Shown here piece by piece: positions 8,147 through 61,382 of a stretch of 64,000 nucleotides of DNA (positions within the stretch are counted from its first letter, which is position 1; each line of letters opens with the position of its first letter). The DNA is from an uncultured Candidatus Saccharibacteria bacterium. GTDB taxonomy: Bacteria; Patescibacteriota; Minisyncoccia; Phycocordibacterales; PALSA-1337. Made by a program: the position numbers and the translations under genes. A model generated the notes under the pieces. That model did not search any database. It was not told the DNA's origin and saw nothing but the letters and a program-made list of their open reading frames with translations. The stretch covers positions 4,431 to 68,430 of the forward strand of contig CAZVQB010000001.1 of NCBI GenBank assembly GCA_964629235.1, read 5' to 3'.

Positions 8147-8662
8147 ATGAATAAACCATTATTTACTAATGAATATATAGGAAACGCTGGTGTTAAATAT
8201 GTTTTCAAATACTACGATTCAGATAATTTTGACCATTTACCAAAAGACAGAATAAAGCAATCCTACGCTGTAGCTTTTTATAAAGACAAATTTCTAGTTG
8301 TTAATAATATAAAAAATCCTAAACAGCAATACGGGCTAATTGGAGGTAGTGTTGAAGAGGGGGAAGATCCAAATGAAACTTTAATCCGAGAAATTATGGA
8401 AGAATCAAGGATGAAAGTCTTAGAATATAAGTTAATTGGTTATCAAAAGGTGATTGATACTCGAGGAATTCAAAAAGATTTTTATCAACTAAGATATTTT
8501 GCAAGAGTTGAACCTGATGGTTTTTTTATTTCTGATCCTGCAGGTTGTGTTACAGAGATTATTGAGTGCACAAAAGATGACTATAAAAAATATTTTGATT
8601 GGGGTGAGATAGGTGATTATATAATTAAAAGAGCATATGAAATTAAACAACCATCAGCATAA
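8147..8662 (+). CDS. NUDIX hydrolase
   Basis: Nudix box GGSVEEGEDPNETLIREIMEESRM matches GX5EX7REUXEEXGU. Confidence 0.65.
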   Translation: MNKPLFTNEYIGNAGVKYVFKYYDSDNFDHLPKDRIKQSYAVAFYKDKFLVVNNIKNPKQQYGLIGGSVEEGEDPNETLIREIMEESRMKVLEYKLIGYQKVIDTRGIQKDFYQLRYFARVEPDGFFISDPAGCVTEIIECTKDDYKKYFDWGEIGDYIIKRAYEIKQPSA

Positions 8663-9683
8663 TTATTTGATTTCTACTTTTGATGGTTTGGGCGATGGAG
8701 TTATTTACTATCCAATTATTAGGTCTGTTGCAGAAGGCAATCCACGAAATCTATTTTATTGTGCGACAAACTTATTTTTTTCTGATAAAGACATATTAGA
8801 AAAACTAGACTTACCAAAAAATATCAAATTCGTTACTGAAGAATTTAGAAAGTTTCCAGAAGAAAACTATAATTATATATTAAACTTTTTATCTGAAAAT
8901 AATATAAAAAAAATAATAAATTTGAGATTTATCGGTAGAGATTTTGAAAAAGGCTACTTCAAATTCAAAGATCATGCAGAATCTAATAATCTAGATTTAA
9001 ATTTTTATGATAGTGAAAATATTTCTTTTTTTGAGAGCAACCATAACGCTCGGTCTGTGGTTTTAAAGATATTTGAAAATACCCTCGGTGGTGAAATTAA
9101 ATACAATGAATTTATACTGAAAACTATTTTCCCAGTATCTGATGATTCCGATGCTATTTTTATAAATATGCACTCAAGAGGCGATTTTAAATTATGGAAT
9201 ATCAATAAATGGTCTGAAGTTATCTCATCAATGGTTTTTTATGGTAAGAAGGTTTATGTTTATGACGGTTATGATGAAAAGGAAAAGGAATATACACGAA
9301 AAGTATTTGATAACTTAAGCCAAATCGTGAAAGGTAAAATTAATCTTTTGGTTGATAGTAATTTATTAGATTTGATATCTACTCTACAAAAGGCCAAATT
9401 GTTAATCTCAGTTGATTCTGGATTAATACATTTGGCTGATGCTGTCGGAGTCGAGTCTATAGGTATTTATCTAACCACCTCTCCTAGAATGTGGGGAGGT
9501 GTAACTGAAAAATTTCATTTTGTACAAAGTCTCCACATGAGAAATTGCAAAAAATTCTATAAACAATTTGGTATGTGTATGAATGGTAAGAAAAAATGCG
9601 AAGAGATTGAGGGTGAGAGTGACGATATAGACATTCATGAAATTTTTAATATAGTTAATAATATCTATGAAAAAGAAAATTAA
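8637..9683 (+). CDS. glycosyltransferase family 9 (heptosyltransferase-like)
   Basis: C-terminal motif LISVDSGLIHLADAVGVESIGIY matches the GT9 DSGpmHlAaAlg signature. Confidence 0.6.
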   Translation: MKLNNHQHNYLISTFDGLGDGVIYYPIIRSVAEGNPRNLFYCATNLFFSDKDILEKLDLPKNIKFVTEEFRKFPEENYNYILNFLSENNIKKIINLRFIGRDFEKGYFKFKDHAESNNLDLNFYDSENISFFESNHNARSVVLKIFENTLGGEIKYNEFILKTIFPVSDDSDAIFINMHSRGDFKLWNINKWSEVISSMVFYGKKVYVYDGYDEKEKEYTRKVFDNLSQIVKGKINLLVDSNLLDLISTLQKAKLLISVDSGLIHLADAVGVESIGIYLTTSPRMWGGVTEKFHFVQSLHMRNCKKFYKQFGMCMNGKKKCEEIEGESDDIDIHEIFNIVNNIYEKEN

Positions 9684-11505
9684 GCTAGCAGTTTTTGTTG
9701 ATGGAGATTTTATACCATCATATGATGGTGCTTCTAACCGATTTCACTATTTATCTAGGTATTTATCAAAACAAGGTATTGACCTGACTATATTTCATGG
9801 GTATAGAGGTTGGTCTAATATCTCTTTAATAAAAAAAGAGCCCTTTAAGACATACGTTTTTCCGATAGATAATTACTACAATAATCTTGAATTAATAGCA
9901 TCAATTTTGATTAAGGAAGGAGTAAACATTATTCAATTTGATAATCTTGAACCAATTCTCTTACAGGGAATTAAATTATCAAAACTTACTGGCGCTAAAT
10001 TGGTTAGCGAGATGCATTATGTGGTAAGAAGTTTGGCGAAAAGATTAGGCGCAGATAATGAGAGGCTATCTGAGATAGAGAAAATAGAATATGAAGTTGG
10101 TAAAAATATTGATCATTTAATATGTCTGAGTGAGCAAGATAAACCGTCTTTGATTAAGTATTTAAATATAGATGCTGATAAAGTATCGGTTATTCCTAGC
10201 GGGGTAGATATTAATGAGATTAAATACTTTGTTTCAGATTTTAAATCCAGAAATATTGTTTTTCTGGGGAATCTATATTTCAAACCCAATGAGGATGCGG
10301 TTAGGATTATAAAGGAAAAAGTATATCCAAAATTAAAAGATCAAGGTTTTAAATTTACTGTTGGAGGTGATTGTCCTCCGGATATTCAAAAAGAATTAAC
10401 TGATAAAAATTTTACTTTCATAGGCACAGTTCCTAATCTTAATGATTTGTTTAAGAATGCAACTTTTGCTCTGGCCCCCATTTTTGAAGGAACTGGTATG
10501 CGTATTAAATTATTGAATTATTTAGCTGCTGGTATCCCTGTTATAACTACGTCGATTGCTACAAATGGCTTTAACCAAAAAGAAGCTTTTATTGTTGAAG
10601 ACGATGTCTCAAAATACGCAGACATTATTCTAGATTTAGTTAATGATAAGAGGAAATTAAAAAATGTATCTAAAAGAGGACATAAGATTATTAAGAAATT
10701 TTATGATTGGAAAATTGTTGCTAAAAGAACAATTAAGACTTATAAAAATATTTTAAAAGAAAGAAATGTAGAAAAATTTGGTAACCATAGTATATTGAAA
10801 ACTAAAGAACCGGTATGGCTCCAAGAAGCTGTTGCCAAGCAAAGATTTAAACAGATTAAGAATCCTAGTCTACCAAAAGATTTTTCATATTGTGTTATAG
10901 AAAATAATTATATTAAAGATTATACTCTTAAAAAAATAGTTGCTTTGGAAGGTATGCCTGGTGCAGGTAAGACTACTTTTATAAATAGTTATGTAAAAAA
11001 TAATGGTAATATAAAATTCTTACCACAACTAGAGATTAAAAATAGAAAGATTTTAGAGAGAGATAATTTGGAAACAACTAAAATGTTTTTGTCTGCTGAA
11101 AAAGAAAAAAGTGATCTTATTAATCAAATTGCAAAAGAAAATAAGGAAATTGTAATTGATCGAACATTTTTAACTACCTTGGCATATTGTTATGCTAGGT
11201 CGAAAAAACTTAAAAATGATGAATACTCAAAGTTGATAGAGTTTTATAATAAGATTAAAGAAGATATCACTTTCCCTACAAAATTAATTTTCTTAGATGT
11301 TGAGAATAAAAGGAGTCTAGAAAGGAGAAGGCGATTTGCTAATAACCCCGATTACTCTAATTGGTTTGATGAAGAATTTTTAAATCATATGCGCGAATTT
11401 TATAAAAAAGAAATATCCAAATTTATTAACATAAAAGTTGATTATGTCGATACAACAAGTATGTCTATAGAAGAAGTTAGCAATACATTAAAAGAAATTA
11501 TATGA
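9667..11505 (+). CDS. bifunctional protein: N-terminal GT4/GT1 glycosyltransferase fused to C-terminal P-loop (TMPK/dNK-like) kinase domain
   Basis: Residues ~1-360 carry the GT4 signature (GTGMRIKLLNYLAAGIPVITT). Residues ~420-612 carry a Walker A motif (VALEGMPGAGKTTF) and a DR(Y)-like motif (VIDRTFLTTLAYCY) typical of thymidylate/deoxynucleoside kinase folds. Confidence 0.6.
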   Translation: MKKKIKLAVFVDGDFIPSYDGASNRFHYLSRYLSKQGIDLTIFHGYRGWSNISLIKKEPFKTYVFPIDNYYNNLELIASILIKEGVNIIQFDNLEPILLQGIKLSKLTGAKLVSEMHYVVRSLAKRLGADNERLSEIEKIEYEVGKNIDHLICLSEQDKPSLIKYLNIDADKVSVIPSGVDINEIKYFVSDFKSRNIVFLGNLYFKPNEDAVRIIKEKVYPKLKDQGFKFTVGGDCPPDIQKELTDKNFTFIGTVPNLNDLFKNATFALAPIFEGTGMRIKLLNYLAAGIPVITTSIATNGFNQKEAFIVEDDVSKYADIILDLVNDKRKLKNVSKRGHKIIKKFYDWKIVAKRTIKTYKNILKERNVEKFGNHSILKTKEPVWLQEAVAKQRFKQIKNPSLPKDFSYCVIENNYIKDYTLKKIVALEGMPGAGKTTFINSYVKNNGNIKFLPQLEIKNRKILERDNLETTKMFLSAEKEKSDLINQIAKENKEIVIDRTFLTTLAYCYARSKKLKNDEYSKLIEFYNKIKEDITFPTKLIFLDVENKRSLERRRRFANNPDYSNWFDEEFLNHMREFYKKEISKFINIKVDYVDTTSMSIEEVSNTLKEII

Positions 11506-12401
11506 AAGATATAAGTGTTATTATTCCAACATACCAACATAAAGATAGAGACATTCATCTGGGACTACTTCTCGACACCCTCCTAGTTGAAAGTAATCTA
11601 AAATATATTAATGAAATCTTAATCATAGACAATGGGTGTGCTTTAGATGGAAGTTCATTTGAAACTCAAAGTGCAGAAATAAAAATAATTAAAGAGCCTT
11701 TATTAGGTTTAAATAATGCTAGAAATTGTGGAATTTCTAATGCTAGTGGATTTATATTTGCTTTTCTAGATGACGATGTAACTGTTTCTAAGGATTGGTC
11801 TAAAGGAATATATAATGGATATAACAATAGAGGTGTTTTATGTGTTGGTGGCTCCGTCTCGTTGGGTGAGTATAATCTGAAATTGCCAAATTGGTTATCT
11901 GATTATTTCAAAAGGTTTTTGTTTCCTCCGAATTTTCCAGAAAATTCTGGAATACTAAAATTGCCATATTATTTGATTGGTGCAAATATGTCTTTCAAAA
12001 AGGAGGTCTTTGATAAATTTGGTCTATTTAATTCAGAACTGGATCGTAAAGGCAATAATCTATTATCCAATGGAGATACTGAATTTATTATTAGATTACC
12101 CACACAGTCTATATGGTATTCAGATGAAGCTCGAGTATCTACAATTGTAAAAATAGATAGATTTACCAGATTTTTTATGATTAAAAGATTATTTTGGCAA
12201 GGAATATCAGACTATATTATGGTTAAAGAAAATGGTACTTCTAATTTCTATGATAAGAATGAGATATTTTTCAGTAATAAATTTTTAAAGATATTTTTTC
12301 ATAAATTAGTCACACTCAAACTTTTTGAAGTTTTTTGTATTGTAGTTAGAATTGTGGGATTTCGTATGGGAATTTTTTATATTAAAGAAAAGAGGGGGTA
12401 G
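11502..12401 (+). CDS. glycosyltransferase family 2
   Basis: GT2 motifs ISVIIPTYQH, DNGC and FLDDDV. Confidence 0.65.
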   Translation: MKDISVIIPTYQHKDRDIHLGLLLDTLLVESNLKYINEILIIDNGCALDGSSFETQSAEIKIIKEPLLGLNNARNCGISNASGFIFAFLDDDVTVSKDWSKGIYNGYNNRGVLCVGGSVSLGEYNLKLPNWLSDYFKRFLFPPNFPENSGILKLPYYLIGANMSFKKEVFDKFGLFNSELDRKGNNLLSNGDTEFIIRLPTQSIWYSDEARVSTIVKIDRFTRFFMIKRLFWQGISDYIMVKENGTSNFYDKNEIFFSNKFLKIFFHKLVTLKLFEVFCIVVRIVGFRMGIFYIKEKRG

Positions 12402-12419
12402 AATCTTTCTACCCCCTCT
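12391..12419. terminator. perfect 12-bp palindrome hairpin spanning both convergent stop codons (bidirectional terminator candidate)
   Basis: AGAGGGGGTAGA-atctt-TCTACCCCCTCT. The left arm encodes the ...KRG* end of GT2 and the right arm (reverse complement) encodes the ...KRG* end of the TMPK-like gene. Confidence 0.6.
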
Positions 12420-12972
12420 TGATGATCTTGAGTATTTCGTTGACGGCGTTTTGAGGACCATCGACGGTATCGTCAATATGGTGTTGTATTCGTTTTTTAA
12501 ATTCCACAAGGCACCGACGCTCCATCTCTTGTCGAAGATTGAATTTCTCCATGTCCTTGACTGGTCCACCACGGCTGTAAAGTCGTTGTTGTCGCTTTTC
12601 TTCGTCACAAACTATCAGGAAAACATAGTCCGGCATGCGACAAAGGTGCTCGAAAGTTTCCTTGATATCGAGCCCATACACTGTGTGATAGCATATAGTC
12701 GACCAGATGTACTTATCACAGACAACGCTTTGGGTTTCCAGGGTCCTGCTAATCTCCCAGGAGGCATGTGCCACCGAAGAGAGATAAAACAAAAATCTGG
12801 ATCCTAGCGAAAGCCTGAGATCAGCCTCTTCCCGCATCTTACTGAATGGTGCGGGGGGAGTGGCGTAGTACTTGGCTGGTAGTTGTTGAGCCAACATCTT
12901 GGAAACTTCCGTCTTGCCGCTACCAGAAATACCTTCGATCACAATGAACAAGTTTGGATTTTTCTGATCCAT
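12409..12972 (-). CDS. thymidylate-kinase-like P-loop nucleotide kinase (GC-rich, likely horizontally acquired)
   Basis: Walker A motif FIVIEGISGSGKTEV and a DRY-equivalent CDKYIW; 187 aa. Local GC is roughly 45-48% against ~30% in neighbouring genes. Confidence 0.55.
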   Translation of the reverse strand: MDQKNPNLFIVIEGISGSGKTEVSKMLAQQLPAKYYATPPAPFSKMREEADLRLSLGSRFLFYLSSVAHASWEISRTLETQSVVCDKYIWSTICYHTVYGLDIKETFEHLCRMPDYVFLIVCDEEKRQQRLYSRGGPVKDMEKFNLRQEMERRCLVEFKKRIQHHIDDTVDGPQNAVNEILKIIKRG

Positions 12973-13039
12973 TTCATACTCCTTTCTGGTTAGGTGTCTT
13001 CCATAACTATATAACTAATATAGTTATGTGTCAATTTTA

Positions 13040-13555
13040 TTAAAAATAAGATTCTAACTTTTTTGTTAAATCGTATAGTTGATCTTTCCCAGCTAGTCCT
13101 TCGCAGTGTTCAAGAAATGTTCTAATGCTAGTAATATATTTGTCGTTATTAACGAACTTAGGAAACAGATGCTGTTCATTTCTTGCGTATATTTTTATAA
13201 AATTTCTCATATGGGAGGTAAAATCAGCCATCTTTATTAATTTACCGCCATTAGATATGGTTTTGATCCCTTCGTAATATTTAAGTTTTTGTTGTTCGTT
13301 ATAGTTTTTAGGGTGAGATACTTCTTGAACCATATCTGCTACTTCTCTTGAAAAATTTTCGGTTATTTCTTCATATGTTGCTGAAGTGTCTTCGAGCGTA
13401 TCGTGCAGTAATCCAGCTATTAAGACAGTTTCATCTTGGACTTCAAATTCATCTCTTAAAATTTGAAATACATCTAGAAAGTGATTCTTTTTGCTGATTT
13501 CTTCGAATTTTTTTGTTGCATATTCTTTTGCTAATTCTATTTTTGTGTGGTCCAT
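13040..13555 (-). CDS. HD-domain phosphohydrolase of RelA/SpoT type (small alarmone hydrolase-like)
   Basis: Motif IAGLLHDTLEDTSATYEEI matches the ppGpp-hydrolase HD signature (AALLHDvvEDT); 171 aa with no synthetase domain. Confidence 0.55.
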   Translation of the reverse strand: MDHTKIELAKEYATKKFEEISKKNHFLDVFQILRDEFEVQDETVLIAGLLHDTLEDTSATYEEITENFSREVADMVQEVSHPKNYNEQQKLKYYEGIKTISNGGKLIKMADFTSHMRNFIKIYARNEQHLFPKFVNNDKYITSIRTFLEHCEGLAGKDQLYDLTKKLESYF

Positions 13556-13605
13556 ATAATTTATATTGATTGTTTTTTTAAGATATTTTAACTATTATAT
13601 GAGTT

Positions 13606-14385
13606 ATGTCAGATATAGTAAATATATATAGGAAAAATACCACAAATACTGGAGATAAGTTTTCTACTCCAACAAAATATTTTGATTTTTTGAAAGATGT
13701 TGAAACTTTAGATTTCACTGAATTACCCAGAGAAGAGTTGGCTAAATATATAAAAGATAAGATTGTCATATTTGGCGGGGGTGGCTTTCTAGAACAAGAA
13801 TATTTTAAAGAATATATGAAGACTTTATTAGGAGCTGATACGAAAATGCTAGTTGGTTGGGGGGTAGGACATAACATTCATGGAGTTTCAGATGTACTGT
13901 TTAATTCTTATGATTACAAAAAAGAATTTGATCTGCTGGGTGTTAGAGACAGTGTTTCAGAAATGGATTGGGTTCCTTGTTCTAGTTGTATGCATGATGC
14001 ATTTGATAAAAAATATGAAATAAAAAATAAAATTGCAATTTATGAACATAAAAACTTTCCACTAAGAAGAATGAATCAGGATTTCCCAAAAATGAAAAAT
14101 GGGGATTCTTTCGAGGAGATTATAGAGTTTTTAGGTAGTGCAGAACTTGTCGTTACTAATAGTTATCATGGTGCTTATTGGGCAACCTTACTAGGGCGCA
14201 GGGTCATCGTCATGCAACCATTTTCTTCTAAATTTTTTAGTTTTAAACACCCATTAGTTGTTGCTAATAATTTTGATGTAAAAAATATTGAAAATATGCC
14301 GATGTATCCGAACGCTTTGGAAGAGGCAAGGGAAGCAAATCTATTATTTTCCGAGAAGGTTTCCCAATTGTTAAAACTAAGTTAG
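13606..14385 (+). CDS. polysaccharide pyruvyl transferase-like protein
   Basis: GGGGFL near the N-terminus and VTNSYHGAYWATLLGRRVIV near the C-terminus resemble PS_pyruv_trans (CsaB/WcaK) motifs. The assignment is weak. Confidence 0.4.
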   Translation: MSDIVNIYRKNTTNTGDKFSTPTKYFDFLKDVETLDFTELPREELAKYIKDKIVIFGGGGFLEQEYFKEYMKTLLGADTKMLVGWGVGHNIHGVSDVLFNSYDYKKEFDLLGVRDSVSEMDWVPCSSCMHDAFDKKYEIKNKIAIYEHKNFPLRRMNQDFPKMKNGDSFEEIIEFLGSAELVVTNSYHGAYWATLLGRRVIVMQPFSSKFFSFKHPLVVANNFDVKNIENMPMYPNALEEAREANLLFSEKVSQLLKLS

Positions 14386-14394
14386 TAAAACGGA

Positions 14395-15129
14395 ATGAAA
14401 ATAATTTCTCTAAATACTTGGGGTGGTCGAGTAAAGGAACCTTTTATTGACTTTGTAAAGAAGTACAACAATACAGATATATTTTGTTTTCAGGAAATAT
14501 ATGACAATGCCGAAGAAATAATGAAGAGGCATTATCCGGAAGATTCTTTTAATATATTTAGTGAACTTAAAGAATTACTACCTAATCACAATGGTTTCTT
14601 TCGACCAGTTCTACAAGGAGTATACGGTTTGGCTATTTTTATTAAAAAGGAGATTCTTCTTTTGGAGGAGGGTGAAATTTTCATCCATCGTTCTGATAGT
14701 AAATTAGTAACAGATGGACATCATTCAAGAAATCTTCAATGGGTTAAATTTAGTTTTAAAAATGAACTATTTACTGTTATGAACGTACACGGATTATGGA
14801 ATGGAAAAGGTAAAACAGATACTCCAGAAAGAATTGCACAATCAAACTTGATAAAGGAGTTTGTTAATAAAGCAGAAGGTAAGAAAATATTGGTAGGAGA
14901 TTTTAACCTAAATCCTGATACTGAAAGTGTTAGGATTTTGGCAAAAGATATGAAAAATCTCATAGAAGAATATTCAATAGTTTCAACTCGTACCAGTCTG
15001 TACAAAAGACCTGGTAAATTTGCAGATTATATTTTTGTTTCTCCTGATGTCGATGTGAATAATTTTACAGTATTACCAGACGAGGTTTCTGACCACGCCG
15101 CTCTTTCTTTAGAGCTAAAATTGGTTTAA
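14395..15129 (+). CDS. endonuclease/exonuclease/phosphatase (EEP) family protein
   Basis: ISLNTWGG N-terminus, VGDFNLNPD and C-terminal SDHAALSLEL match EEP catalytic motifs. Confidence 0.65.
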   Translation: MKIISLNTWGGRVKEPFIDFVKKYNNTDIFCFQEIYDNAEEIMKRHYPEDSFNIFSELKELLPNHNGFFRPVLQGVYGLAIFIKKEILLLEEGEIFIHRSDSKLVTDGHHSRNLQWVKFSFKNELFTVMNVHGLWNGKGKTDTPERIAQSNLIKEFVNKAEGKKILVGDFNLNPDTESVRILAKDMKNLIEEYSIVSTRTSLYKRPGKFADYIFVSPDVDVNNFTVLPDEVSDHAALSLELKLV

Positions 15130-19516: not shown

Positions 19517-19550
19517 AAAACACCCGCACGACTGTCGTGCGGGTGAATTG

Positions 19551-24425: not shown

Positions 24426-24450
24426 AAAGACCCGAAAGGGTTTTTCTTTT
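24426..24450 (+). terminator. intrinsic terminator after rplU
   Basis: agaccc-gaaa-gggtttttc. Confidence 0.6.
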
Positions 24451-25057
24451 AAACCCTCTCTCTATTCTTCAAAGCATTCTTTATTGTATCCGCATCTGAA
24501 TATTCAAGTTCAGTTCCTGTAGAAAGCCCGCGACCAAGTACACTGATTGTTATATTCCGATCTGGGAATTTATTTTTTAAATAATCTTTTATAAAGTCTG
24601 CAGTGTGTTCACCTTCAGCATTTGCATTTAAAGACAAAATGATTTCACTAAAGCTAGTAGTACTTAGTCTATTAAAAAGTTCATTCAATCTGACTTTTCT
24701 CTCAGGTTCTTTATCAAGTATCGGAATAGTGCCTCCAAGGATAAAGTAATACCCATTATAAAATTTACTTTTTTCAATTGCTTCAAAGTCTATGTCTCTT
24801 GATACGATCATTAATTGATTTTGATCTCGATTTTGATTTGAACAAATACTACATGAGCTTCTATTTTCATCCTGATAAAATCTGAAGCAAAGAGGGCAGA
24901 CCCGAATACTTTTCTTTATAGATAAAATAAGCCTAGATATTTCTTCAAGATAACTAGGATTTTTGGTTAAAAGAAAATAAACAAAGCGTTTTGCTTGTCT
25001 TGGGCCTATACCAGGGAATTCTTTAAAATATTCTGTTAGTTTAGAAATCGGATCCAT
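24449..25057 (-). CDS. recR: recombination protein RecR
   Basis: N-terminal HhH (LKEFPGIGPRQAKRFVYFLL), C4 zinc finger (CPLCF...CSICS) and Toprim domain. Start taken at MDPISKL. Confidence 0.85.
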   Translation of the reverse strand: MDPISKLTEYFKEFPGIGPRQAKRFVYFLLTKNPSYLEEISRLILSIKKSIRVCPLCFRFYQDENRSSCSICSNQNRDQNQLMIVSRDIDFEAIEKSKFYNGYYFILGGTIPILDKEPERKVRLNELFNRLSTTSFSEIILSLNANAEGEHTADFIKDYLKNKFPDRNITISVLGRGLSTGTELEYSDADTIKNALKNRERV

Positions 25058-29694: not shown

Positions 29695-29726
29695 AAAGTG
29701 AGTAAAAACAAAAAACCGATTATCTC
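29695..29726. terminator. bidirectional intrinsic terminator between rplI and rpmA
   Basis: aaaaaaccga-ttatc-tcggtttttt. Confidence 0.65.
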
Positions 29727-29739
29727 GGTTTTTTGCTGT

Positions 29740-30806: not shown

Positions 30807-30846
30807 AAAAACCAGCTACTCTACTGAAGTAGCTGGTTTTGTTTTA
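30807..30846 (+). terminator. intrinsic terminator
   Basis: aaaaccagctact-ctactgaa-gtagctggtttt. Confidence 0.7.
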
Positions 30847-36833: not shown

Positions 36834-36850
36834 TGGAGACTATTATAGCA

Positions 36851-36878
36851 AAAAAGTACCTTTTACGGTACTTTTTTG
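36851..36878 (-). terminator. intrinsic terminator
   Basis: aaaaagtacc-ttttac-ggtactttttt. Confidence 0.6.
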
Positions 36879-54651: not shown

Positions 54652-54680
54652 AAAAAAAAATCCGGTTGCCCGGATTTTTC
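54652..54680. terminator. bidirectional intrinsic terminator (A9-atccgg-ttgc-ccggat-T5)
   Basis: Hairpin flanked by an A-run and a T-run. Terminates rpsI on the minus strand. Confidence 0.7.
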
Positions 54681-54686
54681 TTGAGA

Positions 54687-61335: not shown

Positions 61336-61382
61336 AAGAAAAGACCCGCATTAGCGAGTCTTTAATCTTGTTAGAAGATTCT

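Follow-up and report, generated by a model that had tools for sequence, protein, structure and literature searches.

According to PMC3993855, canonical intrinsic terminators consist of a G+C-rich hairpin followed by a U tract of 7-9 nt, and the mycobacterial RNA polymerase requires this U tract. Bidirectional terminators between convergent genes, namely those of Ju et al. 2019 as relayed in bioRxiv 10.1101/2022.10.23.513370, use one hairpin element that is common to a tail-to-tail pair and that can fold in both transcripts; in E. coli, elements of this kind have a hairpin of weak intrinsic activity that pauses the polymerases, and collisions complete termination (10.1101/2022.10.23.513370). 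Terminators close to a stop codon can be masked by the lead ribosome: in E. coli, the efficiency of a terminator located 5 bp past the stop codon falls from about 90% to less than 10% (PMC4824070). Uncoupled, or 'runaway', transcription is a concept that applies to bacteria such as Bacillus subtilis (PMC13323073).

Here, we analyze a palindrome located between two convergent genes, in a stretch of DNA of 64 kb (the whole of which is hereafter referred to as the window). One of these genes encodes a GT2-family glycosyltransferase and the other a TMPK-like P-loop kinase. Based on sequence comparisons, we estimate a probability of roughly 85% that the palindrome functions as the Rho-independent (intrinsic) terminator for a monocistronic TMPK-like gene, and that this terminator overlaps the stop codon of the TMPK-like gene as well as the final part of the GT2 gene. 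The coordinates of all features are collected in the Table.

Table. Features of the convergent GT2/TMPK-like locus, in window coordinates.
Feature	Position	Strand	Details and basis
Predicted terminator hairpin, perfect inverted repeat	12390..12420		AAGAGGGGGTAGAA-tct-TTCTACCCCCTCTT; axis 12405
T-rich tract 3' of stem	12380..12389	-	terminator scan (minus strand only); orthologue conservation
GT2-family glycosyltransferase gene, 299 aa	11502..12401	+	ORF, Pfam
TMPK-like P-loop kinase gene, 187 aa, 564-nt ORF	12409..12972	-	ORF, Pfam
Sigma-70-like promoter of TMPK-like gene	13006..13034	-	TTGACA 13034-13029, 17-nt spacer, TATAGT 13011-13006; 11/12 matches
Shine-Dalgarno AAGGAG	12979..12984	-	6 nt ahead of ATG at 12972

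The identities that a previous, sequence-only reading had assigned to the two genes are both backed by Pfam (Glycos_transf_2, 3.5e-14, for the GT2 protein; Thymidylate_kin, 1.4e-19, for the TMPK-like protein, with 71 bits against a cut-off of 27). A profile search of the PDB with the TMPK-like protein returns thymidylate kinases only at 9e-11. Its score against TIGR00041, the NCBIfam equivalog for dTMP kinase, is 64.3 bits, i.e., below the cut-off of 83.25; thus, 'TMPK-like' is the appropriate level at which to name this protein, rather than Tmk. Most TMPK-like orthologues have TTGACA-type boxes upstream, and Shine-Dalgarno sequences similar to GAAAGGAGG precede them. With its own promoter and, probably, its own terminator, the TMPK-like gene would thus be a self-contained unit of about 0.6 kb.

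The arms of the palindrome had been described as 12 bp long (12391-12402 and 12408-12419). These arms are correct, as confirmed by re-reading the sequence, but the stem is longer, with one additional outer pair (A12390-T12420) and one additional inner pair (A12403-T12407). The resulting hairpin has a 14-bp stem, which includes seven G-C pairs, and a loop of 3 nt. Its folding energy is approximately -24 kcal/mol on either strand (-23.8 kcal/mol on the minus strand), with z-scores of -4.3 and of -4.7, the latter for the minus strand; in a set of 200 dinucleotide shuffles, no sequence is equally stable. Perfect stems of at least 12 bp did not occur in any of 30 first-order Markov simulations of the window. 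These folding z-scores and simulations, together with the covariation among orthologues described below, demonstrate that the hairpin is beyond what would be expected by chance. The only hit among the known RNA families of Rfam is to sraA; it spans the terminator, but its 27 bits fall short of the gathering score, which is 56 (E = 0.25), and we regard this match as due to chance.

The conservation of the hairpin was assessed by comparing 24 loci from different Patescibacteria, namely that of the window, those on contigs of genomes and of metagenomes, and those of four close relatives. Homologues of both proteins are found in metagenome-assembled genomes of Patescibacteria (under the source names Paceibacterota, Zambryskiibacteriota and Parcubacteria), often on shared contigs; exact copies of both are confined to metagenome contigs that belong to the same organism and have an identical layout. 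The sequence identity of the TMPK-like protein across the 24 loci is 47-72%, and that of GT2 is 41-64% in the 19 loci with a GT2 match on the stored sequence. The GT2 gene is convergent to the kinase gene in all 19. Moreover, the gene cluster around this pair, which in the direction of the kinase gene reads PS_pyruv (reverse), HD and TMPK-like (forward), and GT2, GT4::kinase and GT9 (reverse), is kept in 17 of the 17 mapped loci with a GT2 neighbour. In the window, the PS_pyruv gene is located at 13606. A hairpin of 10-16 bp is located on the kinase stop codon, or abuts it, in 24 of 24 loci, with the stop codon either within the 5' arm or immediately before it. In L047 and L048, two distant homologues without a GT2 neighbour, the hairpin was searched for and is absent.

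The sequences of the stems diverge among these loci while their pairing is kept (GAGAGGTAGA.., GGGGGACAGAA.., CAGGAGGTAGG.., TGAGAGCAGG.., GCGAGATAG..). RNAalifold, applied to a MAFFT alignment, predicts 12 base pairs, 11 of which include compensatory changes. Across this alignment 95.1% of the cells are paired, compared with 48-59% when the partners are slid by 1-3 columns, and the covariation score is 0.80, compared with 0.36 in shuffled alignments; although none of 500 shuffles reaches 0.80, the 24 loci are phylogenetically related, and so the shuffle statistics overstate their independence. The slid-column controls retain this relatedness and yet fail to pair. By this comparative evidence, it is the structure of the hairpin, and not its sequence, that is under selection.

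The perfect 14-bp dyad symmetry of the window copy might alternatively reflect a function at the level of DNA, e.g., as a cruciform, as a site bound by a protein, or as a repeat of the REP or MITE type, rather than an RNA structure. Like REP elements and other palindromic repeats, the palindrome has an extragenic appearance and lies at 3' ends between convergent genes. Unlike REP elements, however, it is single-copy in the window, partly coding, orthologous at one locus, and drifting under a pairing constraint. Further copies, for which the sequence-only reading had proposed a search, are absent from the 64-kb window, where the sole match consists of the palindrome's own two arms; that is, the many dispersed copies typical of REP and mobile repeats are not found within these 64 kb. 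Elsewhere, exact matches to the 31-mer are limited to contigs from the same organism, at the same locus, and viral contigs contain no match. We therefore reject a mobile or viral origin of the palindrome. Among orthologues, moreover, pairing is in part kept through G.U wobbles, which are mismatches in DNA as well as on the other strand, the sequence drifts freely while the pairing persists, and the conserved, one-sided T tract described next would have no role in a symmetric DNA site. A DNA-level function is thus highly improbable.

In the RNA transcribed from the minus strand, i.e., in the kinase sense, the stem ends in ...CUCUU and is followed by UUCUUUAAUA / UUCUUUAA, so that the terminal U residues of the stem merge into the tract. 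In the window, this is a short U tract with interruptions, reading UUUUCUUU and then AAUA. On the plus strand, i.e., in the GT2 sense, no U tract is present, the stem being followed there by GAUGAUCU. Averaged over the 24 loci, the T fraction over the 8 nt located 3' of the stem, in the kinase sense, is 0.70. The 8 nt located 5' of the stem are not A-rich, with a mean A fraction of 0.30; in the window, the 6 nt ahead of the stem on this strand read AUCAUC. One locus, L051, has a 16-bp stem and no T tract. The pairing within the stems is similarly one-sided: 24 cells of the alignment are G.U pairs on the kinase-sense strand, compared with five on the GT2-sense strand. The kinase-sense hairpin is the more stable of the two in 17 of the 24 loci, the less stable in one, and equally stable in six, with a mean folding free energy of -19.3 kcal/mol, as against -15.8 kcal/mol in the GT2 sense. 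The T tract, the G.U pairs and the stability, i.e., three independent signals, thus all favour the kinase-sense strand, which argues for an intrinsic terminator of the TMPK-like gene.

Could the same element end the GT2 operon equally well? A true bidirectional terminator of this kind would dispense with a U tract on the GT2 strand, and would rely instead on pausing at the hairpin and on head-on collisions between RNA polymerases, as in the E. coli elements mentioned above. The element is positioned exactly between the convergent genes, and the palindrome in the window is perfect, with a stem that is equally stable on each strand (-23.2 kcal/mol each in one calculation, and -24.3 vs -23.8 kcal/mol in another). 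That is, because of this symmetry, the hairpin folds in the GT2-sense RNA too. Other hairpins in the window have both an A tract and a T tract (29709-29735, 30808-30840 and 54653-54682). At the present locus, however, the GT2 strand lacks the U tract that forms part of canonical intrinsic terminators, and no A tract is conserved on that side among the 24 loci. In 17 loci, the hairpin is destabilised in the GT2 sense by the G.U pairs, down to -4.9 kcal/mol in L044, and in several species the GT2 reading frame is translated right through the hairpin. The layout of canonical bidirectional terminators, namely an A tract 5' of the stem and a T tract 3' of it, is therefore not found here, as reflected in the A fraction of 0.30 and in the terminator scan, which calls the site on one strand only. 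By comparison with the type described by Ju et al. 2019, as that type is relayed in the later preprint, the geometry of the locus, known from sequence alone, is compatible, but the evolutionary signal, i.e., U tract, G.U pairs and stability, is one-sided. Since the GT2 strand has no U tract, the hairpin would act there at most as a pause or as a 3'-stabilising structure, not as a canonical terminator; pausing combined with collisions could nevertheless give it a role on that strand. The earlier proposal that the hairpin terminates both transcripts is thus only half supported, namely for the kinase transcript. We consider a terminator that serves both transcripts equally to be possible but unlikely.

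Our preferred interpretation is that of an intrinsic terminator of the kinase gene. In this mechanism, RNA polymerase would start at the TTGACA-17-TATAGT promoter, and would transcribe the 564-nt ORF. The nascent RNA would then fold into the 14-bp stem, whose 5' arm would be formed by the K-R-G-stop codons of the kinase, and the U-rich UUUUCUUU would release the transcript; we infer both termination itself and the position of the resulting 3' end, near 12381-12385. On the opposite strand, the GT2 gene would read the complement of the U tract as K-E-K, and subsequently the other arm as K-R-G-stop. Compactness of the genome would explain this arrangement, in that the terminator has been pushed back over the stop codon of the kinase, and into the 3'-terminal part of the GT2 gene that faces it. 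The element has what is expected of an intrinsic terminator, namely a stable, G+C-rich stem-loop, a U-rich tract 3' of it, a position at the end of a transcription unit, and structural selection. The notion that the element is a terminator hairpin, which originated with the sequence-only reading, is thus supported by its anatomy, its conservation and its covariation. With canonical intrinsic terminators it shares the G+C-rich 14-bp stem with a short loop, the 3' U-rich tract on the kinase-sense strand, the location at the end of a promoter-to-terminator unit, and conservation by compensatory changes. Unlike in canonical intrinsic terminators, the 5' arm includes the final three sense codons with the stop that follows them, and the 3' arm and the U tract code for the opposite gene.

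As had been observed from the sequence, the GT2 and TMPK-like genes both end in AAG-AGG-GGG-TAG, with one copy in each arm of the palindrome. The GT2 protein ends in ...IKEKRG, with its TAG at 12399-12401, and the TMPK-like protein in ...IIKRG, with its TAG read from 12411 to 12409. In the kinase mRNA, the 5' arm of the hairpin is formed by the last three codons and the stop codon of this gene (K-R-G-TAG, 12420-12409). The GT2 tail, which is not conserved, reads K-E-K-R-G-stop (12384-12401); it consists of the palindrome's left arm, preceded by the complement of the kinase U tract. The codons of GT2 begin at plus-strand positions divisible by 3 (11502, ..., 12390), those of the kinase begin at minus-strand positions divisible by 3 (12972, ..., 12420), and 12390 and 12420 are mirror positions about the axis at 12405. 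The two tails are identical, therefore, because a perfect palindrome has the same sequence on both strands, and because the two reading frames are in mirror register. A TAG in one arm, which appears as CTA in the other, thereby stops both frames. The sole coincidence is the mirror register, a 1-in-3 chance once both reading frames enter the stem. Twin tails in mirror register are also found in L052 (ARG*/KRG*), L051 (ERG*/ERK*) and L045 (AR*/AR*, the asterisk denoting the stop codon). In total, of the 20 loci for which the GT2 stop codon was mapped, four have such tails, which is not above the expectation of one third.

The tails of both proteins are variable. Homology among the GT2 proteins stops at ..G..Y, and is followed by a tail of 3-16 aa that is rich in K and R and has no conserved positions. 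The location of the GT2 stop codon relative to that of the kinase ranges across loci from 19 nt beyond it to an overlap of 93 nt, and in several species GT2 is translated through the whole hairpin. Some GT2 tails are literal translations of the hairpin, e.g., KKRGRIFPPLFR, KRGGQNVTSVPLE, and NRKQEVGIKPTS, the last being GGAGGTGGG..CCCACCTCC; the Lys-rich stretch of GT2 corresponds to the complement of the kinase gene's U tract. The kinase tails differ too, past a conserved ..A..QIL..I motif, reading I, IK, IRG, IRR, ERG, KRG or QEGQK; these last 0-5 residues are not conserved, and covary with the sequence of the hairpin. The suggestion that selection for a shared terminator remodelled both C-termini fits these data, since the GT2 and kinase tails are variable and change together with the hairpin. 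It had also been proposed that orthologues already ending in KRG, in unrelated contexts, would render the match between the two tails coincidental. Several orthologues do end in ..RG or ..KRG, but they do so in the same context, and because of the same hairpin; the match is thus neither a coincidence of two motifs nor a product of a junction. We conclude that the KRG tails are encoded by the hairpin, are evolutionarily labile, and are a geometric by-product of the overlap.

The palindrome had in addition been interpreted as the exact junction between AT-rich, host-like DNA and an acquired GC-rich gene, and possibly as a recombination joint; in that scenario, a foreign kinase gene would have been inserted, and the junction would have created the KRG tails. 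The compositional step is real. The GC content of the TMPK-like gene is 0.45-0.51, compared with 0.25-0.30 on both sides, with a sharp transition exactly at the borders of the gene, and its GC3 is 0.53, i.e., almost five standard deviations above the mean of 50 ORFs in the window (0.237, sd 0.06). However, the convergent pair is found within the same cluster in all 17 mapped loci that have a GT2 neighbour, and the kinase is thus present at this site in each of these clusters. The excess in GC is, furthermore, common to the orthologues: in most lineages, the GC3 of the kinase gene is 0.44-0.57, compared with 0.20-0.30 for GT2, although this excess is weaker in L020-L023 and in L052. The pairwise identities of the kinase and of GT2 are correlated across 120 pairs (r = 0.88), which indicates co-divergence, and four-fold degenerate sites are saturated between species, which implies that the gene arrangement is old. 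Flanking repeats were not found at the kinase gene in the window, nor was a second copy of the palindrome, and, as noted, the viral contigs have no match. The marks of a horizontal-transfer border are therefore absent from this locus, and an origin of the palindrome as a recombination joint is extremely unlikely. The GC-rich block is the coding sequence of the kinase, and the hairpin is simply the end of that coding sequence. The palindrome is an ordinary, conserved feature of a compact genome, and not a scar of gene acquisition.

Several further features of the GC-rich kinase gene were considered. A 151-aa ORF on the plus strand (12352-12807), to which a frameshift within A/G runs could lead from GT2, was rejected as an overlapping antisense gene; an antisense open run of 132 codons is not unusual among synonymous shuffles (p = 0.21), and none of the alternative frames stays open throughout the TMPK-like orthologues. 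A constraint on sequence at synonymous sites of the kinase was also rejected, as four-fold sites are saturated to the same degree as in GT2. A conserved RNA structure within the kinase coding sequence was not found by RNAalifold in a codon alignment of 18 orthologues (-3.8 kcal/mol, 20 pairs). Selection for a compact and stable mRNA could be the source of the GC3 excess. Codon usage typical of high expression is rejected as the reason for it, because the dnaK gene in the window has a GC3 of 0.24.

As a separate observation, in each of 12 orthologues the kinase coding sequence has a more stable fold than its synonymous-codon shuffles, with a mean z-score of -3.05, compared with -0.67 for GT2 segments of equal length (paired Wilcoxon p = 0.002). 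For the whole kinase mRNA the z-score is -7.2, and about two-thirds of this excess stem from the terminator.

The location of the stop codon within the stem bears on how transcription and translation might be related in this organism. The 3' end is predicted to lie about 27 nt from the stop codon, in comparison with a Term-seq peak near 50 nt in other bacteria (PMC13613805). Sites in the window that combine a strong hairpin with a T tract are located 3-19 nt past stop codons, and two further sites of this type, at 24460-24434 and 61363-61340, contain the stop codon. The distance from stop codon to terminator has reportedly been put forward as a signature of runaway transcription, by Johnson et al. 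in 2020. In this regard, the terminators of the window, which lie shortly past stop codons or on top of them, resemble those of runaway-transcription bacteria such as Bacillus subtilis; a second point of resemblance is the purine excess of the coding strands in the window, of approximately 0.52-0.55. Given the masking measured in E. coli, a terminator with an embedded stop codon can work only if RNA polymerase outruns the first ribosome, which we assume here to be the case. The design would thus imply either that, in this organism, no ribosome trails the polymerase closely, or that read-through depends on translation. In a switch of the latter kind, a ribosome close behind the polymerase would mask the 5' arm and thereby permit antisense read-through into the GT2-GT4-GT9 operon, coupling translation of the kinase to repression of the glycosyltransferases. 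In each of the 24 loci, the 5' arm contains the kinase stop codon or directly follows it, the masking of stop-proximal terminators by ribosomes has been measured in E. coli (PMC4824070), and the operon downstream is conserved and convergent, all of which is consistent with such a switch. Stop-proximal or stop-containing terminators are, however, common in the window at unrelated genes, for which a compact genome whose transcription and translation are uncoupled is a simpler account, and no antiterminator, i.e., no alternative structure, is present. A translation-sensing switch is therefore improbable; if it did exist, translation of a small kinase would tune the expression of a glycosyltransferase operon. 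The prevalence of these terminators in the window hints that transcription and translation may be uncoupled in Patescibacteria.

The analysis of this locus has a corrective value, in that a palindrome, twin C-terminal tails and a step in GC content can together mimic a scar of horizontal transfer, while actually being an old, conserved terminator. It also illustrates that a terminator hairpin and its U tract can write the C-termini of two genes, with Lys-rich segments arising from the complement of the U tract, and R-G or E-R from the stem; such tails are thus not to be read as functional motifs. The asymmetry in G.U pairs and the one-sided T tract, in turn, provide a simple comparative test of which strand is served by a shared hairpin. 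Lastly, terminators with embedded stop codons, if found genome-wide, would be a sequence signature of uncoupled transcription in Patescibacteria.

The gene cluster in which the hairpin lies (window positions 8637-15129) is conserved across Patescibacteria (loci L015-L023, L034, L039-L041, L045, L051, L052 and L054). One arm of this cluster encodes, in order, a GT9 glycosyltransferase, a 612-residue fusion between a GT4 and a second kinase domain of TMPK/dNK-like type, and the GT2. This arm is convergent with an HD-domain gene, which resembles RelA/SpoT hydrolases, and with the free-standing TMPK-like kinase; these two genes are in turn divergent from those for a polysaccharide pyruvyl transferase and an EEP-family protein. 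It is unusual for a glycosylation cluster to contain an HD hydrolase and a pair of nucleotide-kinase-like domains.

Besides the hairpin, which spans the stop codons of both GT2 and the kinase, two strong predicted terminators in the window contain a stop codon. Other strong ones lie only 3-19 nt past stop codons, which suggests that stop-proximal terminators are a genome-wide habit. Perfect stems of at least 10 bp number about a dozen in the window, compared with ~1 expected. Five such hairpins are listed in the table; several have A runs to one side and T runs to the opposite side, i.e., the anatomy of a bidirectional terminator. The stem at 19521-19545 separates convergent ORFs, with 4-5 nt between it and their stop codons.

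Features of the window
Feature	Position	Strand	Remarks
Strong predicted terminators	24434-24460; 61340-61363	-	
Perfect hairpins, 10-14 bp	19521-19545; 29709-29735; 30808-30840; 36849-36878; 54653-54682		
Divergent intergenic region, 50 bp only	13556-13605		HD gene start 13555 (-), pyruvyl-transferase gene start 13606 (+)
Perfect 11-bp palindrome, CATAACTATAT-aacta-ATATAGTTATG	13002-13028		Within spacer and -10 box of kinase promoter
Kinase promoter boxes	TTGACA 13034-13029; TATAGT 13011-13006	-	

In the short region between the HD and pyruvyl-transferase genes, a promoter scan revealed promoter-like sites for the minus strand only (13622-13594 and 13612-13585). Transcripts from GT2 that read through the hairpin might therefore reach the plus-strand genes downstream. 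The palindrome in the kinase promoter is placed like an operator; our analysis reported no comparable inverted repeat upstream of the kinase orthologues.

The kinase gene (12409-12972, minus strand) is further distinguished by its GC3, which is 0.53, whereas the window averages 0.24 (sd 0.06). This excess is common to the orthologues in most lineages (loci compared: L015-L046, L051, L052 and L054), and it persists there despite saturation at four-fold sites and co-divergence of the gene with GT2, its AT-rich neighbor. High-expression codon usage does not account for it, as the GC3 of DnaK is 0.24, and neither does an overlapping ORF. An ORF encoding 151 residues does run antisense through the kinase gene (12352-12807, plus strand), in the +1 frame of GT2 and starting just ahead of the A/G runs with which GT2 nears its 3′ end. 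However, GC-rich sequence is expected to yield an ORF of this length, and the orthologues do not conserve it, so we rejected it as a real gene.

To assess mRNA folding, we compared the kinase CDS (12421-12972, minus strand) and 11 orthologous CDSs with synonymous-codon shuffles. The native sequence was the more stable in all 12 species, with a mean z of -3.05 and an extreme of -6.6, compared with -0.67 for GT2 segments. RNAalifold detected no positionally conserved structure in the kinase CDS. Selection for a kinase mRNA that is both stable and compact could lie behind this folding, and might also be the root of the GC3 excess.
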